Shown here piece after piece: positions 28,630 through 56,917 of a stretch of DNA of 64,000 nt; position 1 is the first letter of the stretch; each line of letters opens with the position of its first letter. This stretch comes from an uncultured Verrucomicrobiae bacterium (GTDB lineage Bacteria; Verrucomicrobiota; Verrucomicrobiia; Chthoniobacterales; JAFAMB01), in contig CAWEXO010000005.1 in NCBI GenBank assembly GCA_963813025.1, forward strand, positions 96,001 through 160,000. The letters are read 5' to 3'. Under the pieces are notes generated by a model, which worked only from the letters and a program-made list of their open reading frames with translations, was not told the origin of the DNA and searched no databases. A program made the translations under genes and the position numbers.

Positions 28630-28740
28630 GGGATCTTCAGTAGAAAAGCCTTTTACTTTGTCTCGCGACGTCCGCTGGCCGTTGTGCGAGTAGTGCGGAA
28701 ATCTAGAGAATGTCTCTCAACATCCCGCTGGCTCGCGACC

Positions 28741-28865
28741 GGTAGGGCGAAAATTTATCCGAGCCTTAGCGAGGACTCGTTTGAGCCGGACACAGGGGGT
28801 GTGCCACACCTCCAAGACGGCTCAAACAAGTTCTCGCTGACGCTCGAATGAATTTTCGCCCTACC
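28741..28865. repeat. About 125-bp palindromic REP/REPIN-like element, copy 1
   Basis: Ends GGTAGGGCGAAAATT...AATTTTCGCCCTACC with long imperfect arms. Homologous to the copies at 35481 and 56616. Confidence 0.93.
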
Positions 28866-29036
28866 AGCACAGAGTCCAAGGATGTTCCGAGACGGTCTCT
28901 AACTAAGTTCTCGCCCTACCGACGCCGCGCCAACGACACAAATTGCGAGACATCTCTTTATCTGAGCCGCTTCGGGAGAAATCTATTAGAGCATTTGACC
29001 GATTTCAGGAGGTAGAGTTTTGAACATTCGCCATCC

Positions 29037-35389: not shown

Positions 35390-35750
35390 TTCCAGGGTCT
35401 GTCGGACTTTGGCCAATCTGTAGCTCGCGCAATCGAGCTAAGGTTCGAGACATGTCCCAAAGCGTCTTTGGTCCTGCGCCGGTAGGGCGAAAATTTATTC
35501 GAGCCTTAGCGAGAACTTGTTTGAGCCGTCTTCAGTGTGACCTGCCGCAGCGCCCGGCTCGAACGAGTCTTCGCCGAAAGGCTCAGATGAATTCTCGCCC
35601 TACCGATTTTGGGATGTTGCGAGACATTCTCTAAATTTTCGCCCTACCGCCACAAGACAGTGCGGCATTCTGAGACGATCTCTAACCGCTCGGGCGACCA
35701 ATCGCTTGGGTGGCGTGCTACAGATTTCCAAAGTCCGACAAGTCCTGGAA
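35390..35750. repeat. Nested inverted-repeat cluster containing REP-like copy 2 (35481-35604)
   Basis: Outer arms TTCCAGGGTCTGTCGGACTTTGG..CTGTAGC and GCTACAG..CCAAAGTCCGACAAGTCCTGGAA enclose GGTAGGGCG...CGCCCTACC. Confidence 0.9.
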
Positions 35751-44967: not shown

Positions 44968-45612
44968 ATGAAAAACGATTCGAATTTGAATGTTGAGATT
45001 CGGGACGTGACAGACGGCTTGTGGGTGTGGCGATTCGAAAATCCCTTCTGGAAGCCTGGTCTCGATTGGGAGCCTCTCACGACGTCAACATGCGTTGCGT
45101 CAGGAGGTGAGATCCTGGTTCTGGATCCGCAGGCCCCACCATTCGGCGCAGTTGAGGTGTGGGAACGGCTTGATGCACGTCCCCCGACCGCAGTTGTTAT
45201 TCTCAAGCCGGATCACGTTCGAGATGCTGATCTGTTCGTGCGCCGTTACGGTTCCCGTGCATTCGGGCCAAAACTCTTCTTTCGTGACGACGTTCCTGAG
45301 ACCCTGCTGGAGCCGATTGAGCCCGGGAGCAATCTTCCGGGAGGGATCATCGCCCTGTATGATGGACGGGGCGAAAATGAAACGCCGCTATGGTTGCCTG
45401 AACAGCGGGCCCTTGTTTTTGCTGATGCGCTGACAGCGCCCGGAGGGGAGCTACGAGTTTGGGGGACACCATGGCATGAAGAGCGTGTATTACCGGCATT
45501 ACGCCGGTTGCTTGAGCTGCCATTCGAATACGTGATCGTTTCACACGGCGAGCCGGTGCATACTCGCGCCGCTTATGAGCGTGCTCTCGAGCTGATCCCC
45601 TGGACTGGATAA
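44968..45612 (+). CDS. Metallo-beta-lactamase-fold protein (degenerate motif)
   Basis: 'LKPDHVRD', 'VFADAL', 'VSHGEP'. Confidence 0.7.
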   Translation: MKNDSNLNVEIRDVTDGLWVWRFENPFWKPGLDWEPLTTSTCVASGGEILVLDPQAPPFGAVEVWERLDARPPTAVVILKPDHVRDADLFVRRYGSRAFGPKLFFRDDVPETLLEPIEPGSNLPGGIIALYDGRGENETPLWLPEQRALVFADALTAPGGELRVWGTPWHEERVLPALRRLLELPFEYVIVSHGEPVHTRAAYERALELIPWTG

Positions 45613-45701
45613 ACGAGGCTCAAAGAAAGAGAGCGTCTCGGAACATTCTTGGGCTCTGTGCTGGTAGGGCAGTATCTGAGCAGGTCTGGCAAGGGAAAAA
45701 G

Positions 45702-46976
45702 TTAAAGTTTTTCACCGATTGGTGAGTGGCGTTTTTTGAGGACTTGGAGGTAGCGCTCTTCGTCATAAGGGGTGCGGTCCTGCCAGAGCCGGAAGATGAC
45801 GCGGATCCATTTAAAGGCCAAGGCGCGCACGGCAGTGTGGTGGGACTTACCGCGGGCCATTTGCTCTTGATAATAGAGCTTGGCCCATTGGGAATAAGGA
45901 ATGGAATGAGCCGCGAATTCGTGGAAGCTCTGGCACAGGAATTTGGAGCGAAAGCGCCGCCGCTGGACGCTTTTGGTTTGGCCGCTGCGCACTTGGACCG
46001 GAGCGATTCCGCTTTTTTTCTGTACCTCCAGGGCTTGGGCAAAAGCCTGCCGATTGGAGCCAAAAGCCACCAACAAGCGCGGGGCTAATTGCGGGCCGGC
46101 TCCGGGCAGACTTTCAAAAATGTGCCGATCGGGATGTTTGGCAAACAGAGTGTGGATGGCTTTGTCAAAAGCCTTGATGGAATCTCGCAGCGGCAACAAT
46201 TGACTGACCAAACACTTGCAACTCAGCACGGAGGGCTCCAGCAGAGAACGATCCTCGGTGACGGTTTGGGCCCGAGCAATCTTTTCCAAGCGCTCCTCGA
46301 TCAAGCTCTGGCTGCGGCTGTGGTGCTGATAAAAAAAAGAGCGCAGGGTCTGGGGCTTGGCTTTTTTTAAACTCTGCAGGGTCGGCCAGCGTTTCAAAAA
46401 ATGCAGCGCCAGAGTGGTGCCCAAATCATCGAGGAGCTCGAGGGCCAGCGGATAGTAGACTTTGAGTAAGCTGGTGAGTTGGTTTTCGCACACCACGGAG
46501 GCCTCGACGGCTTTGCGTCGGTGCTGACCGAGCAAATCCAGTTCCCGCACTACCGGCTCCGGGGGTTGATAAAGCCGGAGCCGATCCCGATGGTGATCAA
46601 CGAGCTCTTCGATCAATTGGCTGTCGCGAGGGTCATCCTTGGCGCCACTAGTAAAGAAGACCTTGCGGTATTCGCTTAAACTCAAAGGATTGAGCGGATA
46701 GAGGTCGATCCAGTCTCCCTGGGTGCGGAGCATTTCAAAGAGTGCTCCCCGATTTTGTTCAAAACCAATGGCCACCCGCCCCTGCGGACCAGCCAAGCTT
46801 TTGAGCTCTTCGAGCCAGGTCCGAACCGAAACGGGATCGGCGCCCAGCTGGAATGTCCGGCATCCTCCCTCCGGACCAGAGCGTTGACAGACAGCGTGTT
46901 CTTTATCAGCCCAATCGATTCCCACGCTGACCATATAATGGGGATCTGGGACCGGAAACGGATTTGATCGGTTCAT
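45702..46976 (-). CDS. IS110-family DEDD recombinase/transposase
   Basis: 'GIDWADKEH' (D), 'GFEQ' (E), 'AKDDPRDS' (DD), HhH 'LPGAGP', catalytic Ser region 'GIAPVQVRSG'. Confidence 0.96.
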   Translation of the reverse strand: MNRSNPFPVPDPHYMVSVGIDWADKEHAVCQRSGPEGGCRTFQLGADPVSVRTWLEELKSLAGPQGRVAIGFEQNRGALFEMLRTQGDWIDLYPLNPLSLSEYRKVFFTSGAKDDPRDSQLIEELVDHHRDRLRLYQPPEPVVRELDLLGQHRRKAVEASVVCENQLTSLLKVYYPLALELLDDLGTTLALHFLKRWPTLQSLKKAKPQTLRSFFYQHHSRSQSLIEERLEKIARAQTVTEDRSLLEPSVLSCKCLVSQLLPLRDSIKAFDKAIHTLFAKHPDRHIFESLPGAGPQLAPRLLVAFGSNRQAFAQALEVQKKSGIAPVQVRSGQTKSVQRRRFRSKFLCQSFHEFAAHSIPYSQWAKLYYQEQMARGKSHHTAVRALAFKWIRVIFRLWQDRTPYDEERYLQVLKKRHSPIGEKL

Positions 46977-47029
46977 GCTTGCTCCTTTTTTCTGGTTTTA
47001 CCCAGCGCGAAAAAAGCCGCTTGGCTTTG

Positions 47030-47343
47030 GCCGTCCGAAATCCGTATAGTTAAGTCGTCGAAGTGTGAAGTGCTCGACCTCAACTAGAGTATTCGTTGTG
47101 ACGAATCAAAGCGCGACCGGCTGGCTCGAAACTCTGCCCTAAAGATCTCGCGGACCCGAAAATCCTATTCGTAGCCAGCCGGCGCGTCCTTCTTCGCGTG
47201 GGCAGCGCGGGATTTTGCCCGACTGCCCTTGGCAAAGAAAACCCTTTCTTTTTTCCAAAGCTTTCTTTTCTCCGGGCGGAGTTATTCACAAGCTGGAGCT
47301 CCGACCGGTAGGGCCTCCGACCACAGCTTGCTGAATAACTCCG
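47030..47343 (-). ncRNA. Predicted IS110 bridge RNA
   Basis: Structured non-coding end with loop segments matching the target (47157-47165, 47134-47141) and the donor (47043-47049, 47088-47092). Boundaries approximate. Confidence 0.8.
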
Positions 47344-47445
47344 GACTTGCTATACGAAAATTCACTCGAGCGGCCGAGGCCATGTTGCGAGACACTCCCA
47401 GACCGTATTCCCTCCTTGCTCCTTAGAACTCTGGCTGTCGGCCTG

Positions 47446-48435
47446 CTATAAGGCATGCACTGCGCTGAGCTGTTCGTGAACAAATTTGATGCGGTTCACC
47501 AACGGACGCCCGAACACCGGAGAGCTGATCTCGACGACGTCTTCGTCCTGCATCCTGATTCCATTGGCGAAAGAAAGTGTGCCTGTTCCGAAGAAATGGA
47601 CATGAACATCGCCAGGCCGACGAAATTGCGGGTACTTGAACTGGTGATATTCAAGGTTTGCCAGAGAATGGCTCATGTTGTCTTCTCCGGACAAAAACGG
47701 CTTTTCCCAAAGTACTTTTCCGTTCCGGAGAATGCGGCTTACTCCCGCCACGTGAGCGGGCAAAGACCCGACCAGCAATTCGGGTCCTAACGCGGAGGGG
47801 CGTAGTTTCGAATGCGCCAGGTAAAGATAGTTCCGTCTCTCCATGACGTGATCGGACAATTCGTTGCCGAGGGCAAACCCGACACGGCAAGGCCGAGTAT
47901 CGGGTCCGATGAGATAGAGCCCGACAATCTCCGGTTCTTCGCCGGCATCCTCGCCGAAACCAGGAACCGATAGTGAAGCGCCTGGACGAGCGATGATGCT
48001 GCCGTCGCCTTTATAGAACCACTCTGGCTGCACTCCCGGCCGACCCTGTTGAGGTTTTCCTCCCTCAACTCCCCACCGAAACATTTTGAGCGAATCAGTC
48101 AATTCTTCTGCCGCTGCGCTGATCTTCTGGTGCATTTGGTCGCGAGTCGCCGCGCTCCCCAGATGGGTCAGACCGGTTCCAGTGACTAGACAATGTGCTG
48201 GATCAGGGTGATCCAGTGGCGGAAGAATTTTCTGCTCTGCTAATAATCGGCTGTACTCATGCGTTCCCGCGACTTGGCAATTCTCGATTTGTTGGGCCAG
48301 AGTTTTACCTGAACCGATTGCTTGCCAAGCCAAATCCCGGATCGATTCCAGGCCTGCGATTTCCAGCGCCTTTTCTTCGTCGATGATCGCCACGGCACGG
48401 GCGCCGTCCGCTTTTTCGAATTGGATTAAATTCAT
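47446..48435 (-). CDS. AraD1/GguC-family fumarylacetoacetate-hydrolase-like protein
   Basis: 'PPLDHPDPAH', 'GTGLTHLGSA', 'QPEWFYKG', 'YLYLAHSKLR'. Confidence 0.88.
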   Translation of the reverse strand: MNLIQFEKADGARAVAIIDEEKALEIAGLESIRDLAWQAIGSGKTLAQQIENCQVAGTHEYSRLLAEQKILPPLDHPDPAHCLVTGTGLTHLGSAATRDQMHQKISAAAEELTDSLKMFRWGVEGGKPQQGRPGVQPEWFYKGDGSIIARPGASLSVPGFGEDAGEEPEIVGLYLIGPDTRPCRVGFALGNELSDHVMERRNYLYLAHSKLRPSALGPELLVGSLPAHVAGVSRILRNGKVLWEKPFLSGEDNMSHSLANLEYHQFKYPQFRRPGDVHVHFFGTGTLSFANGIRMQDEDVVEISSPVFGRPLVNRIKFVHEQLSAVHAL

Positions 48436-56550: not shown

Positions 56551-56917
56551 GGGTCTGTCGGACTTTGGAGCACGCGGTACGATTTTTGTAATTTGCTTCG
56601 CGACCTGACAAGATCGGTAGGGCGAAAATTCAATTGAGCGCCAGGCGAGAACTTGTTTGAGCCGTCTTGGGCGCGGCGAACCCCAACATCCGGCTCGAAC
56701 GAGTCCTCGCCGAAGGCTCGGATGAATTCTCGCCCTACCGACCGTGAAACAAGACCACTCCCTTGTGTGAAGGTTCTCGTGCTTCGGACACGTCCCGAGG
56801 TCAGGCCAACCCGGCGGCGTCTTGGAGTGCGCGCGACTTGTCGCCGCTTTCGGATCGCGCGGAGCGCGGCCAATGCAGATCTTCCGGATCTTCTCACGCC
56901 TAAAGTCCGACGGACCC
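56551..56917. repeat. Nested inverted-repeat cluster containing REP-like copy 3 (56616-56739)
   Basis: Outer GGGTCTGTCGGACTTTGG / CCTAAAGTCCGACGGACCC; inner GGTAGGGCG...CGCCCTACC. Confidence 0.9.

Follow-up and report, generated by a model that had tools for sequence, protein, structure and literature searches.

IS621 of Escherichia coli is an insertion sequence (IS) of the IS110 family whose recombinase combines a DEDD with a Tnp domain and whose long left end (LE) encodes a bridge RNA made of a 5′ stem-loop and two guide loops, as described in PMC11208160 and PMC11208158. In that description each loop carries the sense of a substrate's left arm on its 5′ strand and the antisense of the right arm on its 3′ strand, with handshake bases complementary to the opposite substrate; the two halves of the promoter meet at the junction of the excised circle, and repetitive extragenic palindromic (REP) sequences are targeted. 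Apart from the 5′ strand of the donor loop, which matches the left donor weakly, each of these features has a counterpart (a predicted one for the split promoter) in the element analyzed here, a 1685-bp IS in a 64,000-nt stretch of DNA from an uncultured Verrucomicrobiae bacterium (positions 96,001 to 160,000 of contig CAWEXO010000005.1, assembly GCA_963813025.1; hereafter the window, whose first letter is position 1). We consider it probable that this is a recently active IS110 element that moves by bridge RNA-guided conservative recombination between its excised circle, the donor, and a repeat terminus, the target, with an effective core of a single base.

The core of IS621 lies at positions 8 and 9 of both substrates. 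The second base, T, is called "almost invariant" and the first, C, less conserved (PMC11208158), AT, GT and TT cores have been tested with both substrates altered together (PMC11208160), and a 2026 paper calls the CT core invariant (PMC13626964). Engineered designs filter for an identical CT or GT at positions 8-9 of donor and target (10.1101/2025.05.14.653916), and the pipeline of a 2026 preprint, which takes "a core of length c" as its basis for reconstructing sites, can handle variable cores (10.64898/2026.10.21.760802). We found no statement of a natural one-base or unequal core in the literature searched; the supplementary element tables of PMC11208160 and 10.64898/2026.10.21.760802 may list cases.

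Homing of IS110 elements to REP sequences was recognized by 2006 at the latest (PMC1525189), and guidance by bridge RNA is likewise known. The Pseudomonas putida elements ISPpu10 and ISPpu9 resemble the present IS in being multi-copy IS110 elements that occupy one position of the genome's own REP family in one orientation (10.64898/2026.03.19.712850, PMC12288879, PMC8450116, PMC1525189), and a junction promoter is reported for ISPpu10 (10.64898/2026.03.19.712850). However, ISPpu10 is described with a CT core, and its host phylum and repeat are unrelated to those considered here. IS1111 elements with their seekRNA (PMC11187229) are similar in their DEDD recombinase and RNA-guided choice of target, but in that account their long non-coding region lies downstream of the gene, their inverted repeats are subterminal, and the order of the strand matches is reversed. 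The present IS has its long region upstream (379 versus 31 nt) and a strand-match order of the IS110 type.

Compared with IS621, the recombinase is some 100 aa longer and only distantly similar (E 8.7e-6, in the C-terminal domain only), a different repeat is targeted, in a Verrucomicrobiota-type genome, and the left donor guide falls short of the core in the present clade. Whereas an IS621-type element has an identical CT core in donor and target, here the target reads CG and the donor TG with respect to 10 of 10 copies; position 9 is G instead of T, position 8 differs between donor and target, and the handshake complementarity involves donor bases 7-8, not 6-7. By its sequence, this is probably an active bridge-RNA IS110 of the ordinary kind that homes to a genomic repeat, and its one real departure, seen in sequence only, is the single shared base together with a shifted handshake.

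The element and its insertion site

The IS lies on the minus strand at 45671-47355. On the plus strand the repeat gives way to the IS as ...CTGGTAGGGC|AGTATCTGAG at 45670/45671 (also written ...GGTAGGGC|AGTATC...), and the IS to the repeat as ...GCTATAC|GAAAATTCACTCGAGCG at 47355/47356 (IS and flank, GCTATAC|GAAAATT). The ends of the IS are GTATAG... and ...GATACT, with long terminal inverted repeats and a multi-base target duplication both absent. In element orientation the 379-nt LE (47355..46977) is followed by the gene and a 31-nt right end (RE; 45701..45671):

47356..47370, minus strand: left half of the target, ...CGAGTGAATTTTC in element orientation, from the junction reading of all copies
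46977..47355, minus strand: LE, 379 nt, non-coding, candidate bridge RNA, from folding and homologous left ends
46976..45702, minus strand: recombinase gene, 424 aa, a single long open reading frame with a DEDD RuvC-like domain and a Tnp domain
45671..45701, minus strand: RE, 31 nt, tip ...CTCAGATACT, from the alignment of copies and the RE motif of relatives
45663..45670, minus strand: right half of the target, GCCCTACC in element orientation, the same 8-mer following 9 of 10 copies; 45670 is the single shared base

The element belongs to the IS110 family on every family feature tested. Its recombinase matches PF01548 (DEDD_Tnp_IS110; E 1.3e-20, 74.2 bits, residues 18-176), PF02371 (Transposase_20; E 1.1e-8) and the NF033542 equivalog "IS110 family RNA-guided transposase", whose cut-off of 140 bits it passes with 148.4. 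The residues D21, E73, D115, D118 and S331 do not vary between it and seven aligned homologues, and S331-G332 align with an S-G pair in the ISCro4 chain 9t56; by likeness to S241 of IS621 (PMC11208158), S331 is the putative catalytic serine. Among solved structures, relatives recognizable by sequence are only the recombinases of ISCro4 (E 2e-6) and IS621 (E 8.7e-6), both through the C-terminal domain alone. An Rfam scan of window positions 45000-48000 returned nothing relevant, its three matches being at chance level and under the gathering scores. The same genome holds four more IS110-family recombinase matches at 30-34% identity (C3:83266-84420, C13:18614-19798, C11:72379-73281 and C13:453126-453863), one with an internal stop and one partial, which represent other IS110 lineages.

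The assembly (4.42 Mb in 16 contigs, 80% complete by marker genes, with the window on contig C5) contains ten full-length copies, 98.4-100% identical, and one 216-nt LE fragment. All eleven sit at the common site AATTTTC(G)CCCTACC, and the consensus of the copies in element orientation is ...AATTTTC|GTATAGCAAGTCC...CTCAGATACT|GCCCTACC.... The left junction is identical in 10/10 full copies and the fragment, and the right junction in nine of the ten. The exception is the copy at C4:2773-4457, where A replaces G as the first base after RE (ATACT|ACCCTACC) beside a normal left junction; three empty sites of the genome carry the same A variant, TTTTCACCCTACC. Four copies are identical and three others lie within at most two changes, the recombinase frame is open in all ten, and the guide segments are identical in all nine copies of 1685 nt, a comparison that left out the 1684-nt copy on C16, which has a 1-nt deletion in RE. 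To judge from these copies, the IS has been active recently and has multiplied to ten copies. In the assembled contigs of four public runs, the summed contig depth is 23-24 over the IS and 0.9-4.4 in its flanks, which fits a multi-copy repeat and says nothing further.

The uninterrupted target 13-mer, TTTTCGCCCTACC, occurs 143 times in empty form where 0.13 occurrences are expected, and a 15-mer version occurs 127 times. Five empty 13-mers lie in the window, at 28741(-), 28853(+), 35481(-), 35636(+) and 56616(-):

28741..28865, strand not assigned: unoccupied repeat unit with a target at each inverted end (28741-28753 and 28853-28865), by exact 13-mer
35481..35648, strand not assigned: two unoccupied targets (35481-35493 and 35636-35648), the second being the empty paralogue of the C16 site, by exact 13-mer
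56616..56628, minus strand: unoccupied target, by exact 13-mer

The initial annotation, made from the window alone, had described an IS110 element inserted exactly into a repeat terminus, and its account agrees closely with these results. Both the family assignment and the single exact point of insertion are borne out, the latter by ten copies and the fragment. The five unoccupied targets that it named are exact 13-mers within 1 nt of where it placed them, the left flank is nearly the reverse complement of 28858-28900 as it had noted (40/43 bases by eye), and the right flank continues the same repeat (15/16 against the reverse complement of 28843-28858, also by eye). It had also held that the empty site could be rebuilt from the window, and a natural one is present: 35581-35700 matches the flanks of the occupied C16 site at 116/120 bases (manual count) with the IS absent, and forms a natural filled/empty pair with it. 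Its assigned span of 45628-47400 does contain the IS but also takes in flanks, the IS proper being 45671-47355. It had proposed to look for other copies at ATTTTCG^CCCTA and had named copies in unrelated targets as the finding that would speak against it; all ten full copies in the genome lie at that sequence and none at an unrelated target, so nothing of that kind was encountered.

A candidate bridge RNA in the left end

At the level of sequence, the LE is a candidate for encoding an IS621-like bridge RNA. The relevant elements, with the two halves of a putative promoter, are as follows:

47349..47354, minus strand: -10-like TATAGC at the LE tip, from sequence reading
47278..47342, minus strand: 5′ stem-loop of the candidate bridge RNA, 65 nt, folding at -36.6 kcal/mol (z -3.41)
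47117..47182, minus strand: target-binding loop, with the left target guide (LTG) in 47157-47166, AGGAUUUUCG, and the right target guide (RTG) with handshake bases at 47132-47141, UAGGGCAGAG
47023..47112, minus strand: donor-binding loop, with the left donor guide (LDG) region at 47080-47089, CUCUAGUUGA, a weak match, and the right donor guide (RDG) with handshake bases at 47041-47049, CUAUACGGA
45687-45692, minus strand: -35-like TTGCCA in RE, from sequence reading

The stem of the 5′ stem-loop, GTTATTCA/TGAATAAC, is conserved in relatives, the two-loop region (47011-47195) folds into two arms with z -3.24, and both loops are closed by conserved CGAA/UUCG stems. Relatives were drawn from kin genomes and from 78 loci of a genome collection, those at family level being labelled as Verrucomicrobiota or Verrucomicrobiae metagenome-assembled genomes, and 21 left-end segments were aligned. 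RNAalifold recovered the basal stem of the target loop from the MAFFT alignment, but not the other closing helices. These were specified by hand and then counted, the set covering the outer stems and the inner CGAA/UUCG closers of both arms. Over the 21 left ends the four closing helices are 86.7% paired compared with 77.9% in shuffles, none of 500 shuffles reaching 86.7%; compensatory changes occur in 13 of 22 pairs, and controls with slid partners are 25.7-52.7% paired.

The guides correspond to the observed junctions. The 5′ strand of the target loop carries the sense of the left target, ATTTTCG (7 nt), and its 3′ strand the antisense of the right target, GCCCTA (6 nt), while the 3′ strand of the donor loop is antisense to the LE tip GTATAG (6 nt, or 7 nt with the C of the target). 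For the 16 elements in which both junctions could be placed, a set that includes several copies from one genome and whose members are therefore not all independent, the summed LTG and RTG match of an element to its own target averages 15.6 (minimum 14). Across 186 pairings of guides with the target of a different element the mean is 7.7 and the maximum 11. Left out of this table were L060 and L106, for parsing, and L059 and L082, whose LE tips could not be placed confidently.

The -35-like and -10-like boxes come together, as TTGCCA-17 nt-TATAGC, only in a circle that joins RE to LE, and we infer that this arrangement is a junction promoter like those described for IS621 and ISPpu10. In relatives the RE ends in TTGAC...CTCAG, exactly 5 nt and one further base at 62 of 78 related loci, and TATAG heads the LE wherever the tip can be placed. 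By analogy with IS621, joining of RE and LE would build the promoter TTGCCA-17-TATAGC, from which the LE would be transcribed; the resulting RNA would combine a 5′ stem-loop with one loop that binds the target and one that binds the donor. The predicted joint of the circle is ...CAGATACT-G-TATAGC..., that is ...CTCAGATACT-G-TATAGCAAG, with a single G. Motifs of alternative or bottom-strand-type junctions are absent from the genome, which also yielded no convincing excision footprint among the ACTGCCCTACC, CTGCCCTACC and TGCCCTACC contexts.

Some further details of the LE are recorded here. The sequence GAAUACUC was rejected as a left donor guide, because its AAUACUC is a scaffold motif that relatives keep whatever their donor sequence. 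The apical loop of the 5′ stem-loop contains GCCCTACCGGTCG (47302-47314, minus), which reads like the right half of the target, in the same sense, and complements the right target guide UAGGGC; this loop differs in the relatives G023 and L043, and GCCCTACCGGTCG is not conserved. Between the donor-binding loop and the ribosome-binding site lies a small hairpin followed by six U, AAGCCAAGCGGCUUUUUU (47010-47027, minus), which went unflagged by a scan, its stem having fewer than five pairs, and which could end the guide RNA.

The shared base and competing readings

In element orientation the target, TTTTC-G-CCCTA, and the donor, GATACT-G-TATAG, have only G in common (C on the plus strand). Position 8 is C in the target (143 empty sites and 11/11 left junctions) and T in the donor (10/10 right ends); the left junction keeps the C of the target (TTTTCG) in 11 of 11 cases, and the right junction keeps the T of the donor in ten of ten. 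The donor register is shared with relatives, in which RE ends with CTCAG, 5 nt and N, and LE begins with N, TATAG, 3 nt and GTCCG. The G thus stands where the usual CT has its T, at position 9. Among the 62 relatives with the strict motif the RE-tip dinucleotide is CT in 57, TG in 2, and TA, AT and CA in one each.

CT-core relatives of the same clade, such as the G015 element (loci L015, L029, L037, L039 and L056; 46% protein identity), have the same LE architecture, the CGAA/UUCG closers, the TATAG tip and the TTGAC..CTCAG right end, and also target a short palindromic repeat (GTCCCTCCGGGAC), but their two substrates have CT in common, both bases of which are paired by their guides, whereas the present IS shares only G. 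Where both substrates have CT, as in ten relatives, the match of the RTG to the unrecombined target begins at position 8, and its match to the right junction is longer by 2 nt (donor bases 6-7) in nine and by 1 nt in L050; the RDG is symmetrical in all ten (9 versus 7). In the present IS the RTG matches the target from position 9 (GCCCTA, 6 nt) and the right junction over 8 nt, CTGCCCTA. Its A opposite position 8 and G opposite position 7 complement the donor C-T, and the base opposite position 8 mismatches the C of the target. The RDG has a symmetrical arrangement: its match is GTATAG (6 nt) in the donor and lengthens to CGTATAG (7 nt) at the left junction, and its G opposite position 8 complements the C of the target; in a manual reading the left-junction match runs on through a G-T wobble and an A-T pair. 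Four elements (this IS, L028, L043 and L044) have a target match that starts at position 9, a product that adds donor bases 7-8, and a symmetrical RDG. Handshake complementarity is thereby shifted by one position relative to the CT-core relatives. Because the RNA base that faces position 8 fits the other substrate in both loops, position 8 behaves as a handshake base and not as part of the core. Most likely, then, it is an extra handshake base that would pair only after top-strand exchange, leaving an effective core of one nucleotide.

The same arrangement recurs outside this genome. The two G023 copies and L043, with a protein identity of about 70%, show it in another genus, and the one-base state is, on this evidence from sequence, an old one. 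An element of G012 (L014, identical to L044; 46% identity) has A as the shared base, C in the target, T in the donor and A in the RTG, and its empty site, GCGCGACTGCACCCCAGGCTATGATC, is found twice in the same locus; in L044 the one-base state appears to have arisen independently. Across lineages the base at position 9 and the bases facing it in the two right guides change together, T going with A, G with C, and A with U. The one-base apparent core noticed in the initial annotation accordingly extends to all copies, to the 70%-identical relative and, with A, to the 46%-identical element. Its suggestion of independent REP targeting is a fair one as well, since the lineage is far from IS621 (E 8.7e-6) and the repeat is unrelated to the E. 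coli REP.

A mechanism of the following kind would account for these observations. The excised circle would serve as donor, and the target would be a single position within the inverted terminus of the palindromic repeat. For IS621, top-strand cleavage is described after position 9 and bottom-strand cleavage between 9* and 10* (PMC11208158), the handshake guides are the two bases 3′ of the right guides, which pair with the other substrate at its positions 6-7 once the top strands have been exchanged (PMC11208160; PMC11208158), and products are expected to have mismatches beside the core and an unligated bottom strand (PMC13626964). In the present IS, top strands would be exchanged 3′ of the G, and it is the top strand that would determine the products; position 8 would pair with the handshake bases only once that exchange has taken place. 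The left product would then be the target through G followed by TATAG, and the right product the donor through G followed by CCCTA; products so predicted from the top strand are the junctions observed. Positions 6-7 are already unlike in IS621 substrates, and by this analogy a third unlike position would be a small step. We tentatively propose a lineage that requires donor and target to agree in no more than one base (position 9, here G) and that has recruited the neighboring position as a handshake base.

Several observations, beyond the shared origin of some of the 16 elements compared above, weigh against this proposal. The cleavage positions are borrowed from IS621, a distant relative that is matched in the C-terminal domain only (E 8.7e-6), and the 13-mer of the predicted circle junction is found nowhere in the assembly. 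The LDG of this IS makes 3 contiguous matches, or 6/9 with one bulged U in a manual alignment, compared with 7-9 in 13 elements outside this subclade. By manual count the 3′ strand of the target loop has 13 nt here and 12 in three relatives, and the G of the RTG faces position 9 if counted from the apical stem and position 10 if counted from the basal stem. The A at the right junction of the C4 copy would not be predicted by the top-strand model unless it is a later mutation; it is either such a mutation or else a hint of a crossover 5′ of the G. Finally, L061, with an apparent one-base core, is not counted as support. It is known from one copy only, in which the left target guide calls for T at position 8, and in the genomes of L061 and L097 (Bryobacterales, with G at position 9) the counts of empty sites are no higher than a reversed-pattern control, so that its one-base core stays no more than apparent.

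A different view of the same bases, which we judge rather unlikely, is that the core is an ordinary dinucleotide, pyrimidine-G, with a tolerated defect: CG would be ancestral in both substrates, an inherited C-to-T change in RE would lower efficiency, and position 8 would have no handshake role. C and T are both pyrimidines, with either of which the G of the RDG can pair, by Watson-Crick or wobble geometry, and CpG to TpG is a common mutation. IS621 is moreover described as tolerating other first core bases (PMC11208160; PMC11208158). However, T is fixed in 10/10 copies and, at 70% protein identity, also in L043 and the two G023 copies. Opposite this position the RTG carries an A, which fits T and mismatches the C of the target, and the independent lineage L044 shows the same combination of target C, donor T and RTG A.

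Placement of the crossover 5′ of the G seems to us quite improbable, even though two of the points listed above favor it. The donor would then keep a CT core (ATA-CT|G) opposite TC in the target (TTT-TC|G), with no shared core at all and with G as the first base of both right arms. In a manual reading counted from the basal stem, the AG of the RTG that faces the CT core in CT relatives is also present here and faces the CT of the donor, and it is the position-10 assignment from this count that keeps the alternative alive. The C4 copy, with ...TTTTC-G on the left and ...ACT-A on the right, is likewise as predicted for insertion into an A-variant target, of which the genome has three empty examples. 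Nevertheless, the RE and LE tips in register with relatives put the G at position 9, the RDG register, the RTG register from the apical stem, and L044 agree on that position, and a core without any shared base would stand further from every characterised case. That a protein or DNA structure recognizes the palindromic repeat, with the matches of the LE to DNA incidental, is very improbable: targets do lie in palindromic units and a target stem-loop is reported to contribute to ISPpu10 targeting (preprint 10.64898/2026.03.19.712850), but guide-DNA matches follow the target across 16 elements (own 15.6 versus cross 7.7), and only 4/10 occupied sites have an inverted partner arm nearby (220 nt or less away, with no more than 2 mismatches).

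Bridge recombinases are being engineered as programmable tools for DNA insertion, excision and inversion. A G at position 9 beside an unlike position 8, together with a second lineage that uses A, suggests that the constraint on the core can relax and that the boundary between handshake and core is movable. If the one-base reading is true, the shared core dinucleotide is a rule of IS621-like enzymes and not of the whole family, and enzymes of this clade could reach sites left out of present designs.

The target repeat and variant copies

Of the 143 empty sites, 78 form 39 inverted pairs, of which 24 are spaced 110-114 nt. By this pairing the "REP" measures about 125 bp, ends in inverted termini, GGTAGGGCGAAAATT...AATTTTCGCCCTACC, and is longer than the classical 35-bp REP, and the IS enters 8 bp inside the repeat terminus. 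The target 13-mer occurs 143 times in this genome, compared with 6 times in G001, of the same genus, and 7 times in G023, of another genus of the family. G023 has the 70%-identical relative of the recombinase in addition to its 7 sites, while G001 (79% complete) has no match to the recombinase; the repeat family and the IS seem to have expanded together in the present genome. Matches to Y1_Tnp, the domain of the RAYT transposases associated with REP elements, are limited in this genome to three partial ones, at 29-37 bits, covering profile positions ~40-121 only.

The target-bearing unit is itself nested in a larger composite repeat, with a second inverted motif, ATGTTnCGAGACnnTCTCT, about 15-25 nt outside each terminus (28700-28920, 35420-35700 and 45628-45670). 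Variant ends (of the AATTCTCGCCCTACC type; 54 sites with CTC ahead of GCCCTACC) are without an IS copy. Two additional GTATAGCAAG 10-mers in the genome and CTGCTCGATACT at C4:7350 were considered and set aside as chance matches.

A few copies are unusual at the LE. The solo fragment (C1:207767-207985) consists of 216 nt plus a 13-bp duplication, has a normal left junction and ends inside the target-binding loop. A 13-bp tandem duplication of the LE tip GTATAGCAAGTCC is present at three loci, namely two full copies (C13:92657-92682 and, on the minus strand, C11:77952-77977) and the LE fragment (C1:207973-207998, minus), and is not found in the window copy. Its inner joint, TCCGTATAG, is perfectly complementary to the right donor guide and handshake bases, CUAUACGGA. 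The duplication may be what remains of an insertion that struck a resident LE at ...TCCG|G, one tandem copy having then been lost; no ATACTGGAGTT joint of this insertion-into-LE type is left in an IS context in the genome. In a contig of a 2021 run labelled with another organism (X2), 151 nt of LE (47129-47279) are present without differences, a share too small to interpret.

The repeat arm upstream of the LE (47365-47378, minus) forms a short GC-rich hairpin followed by TGAATTTTCG, which a simple scan reports as terminator-like; the T-run of this hairpin motif is the left half of the IS target.

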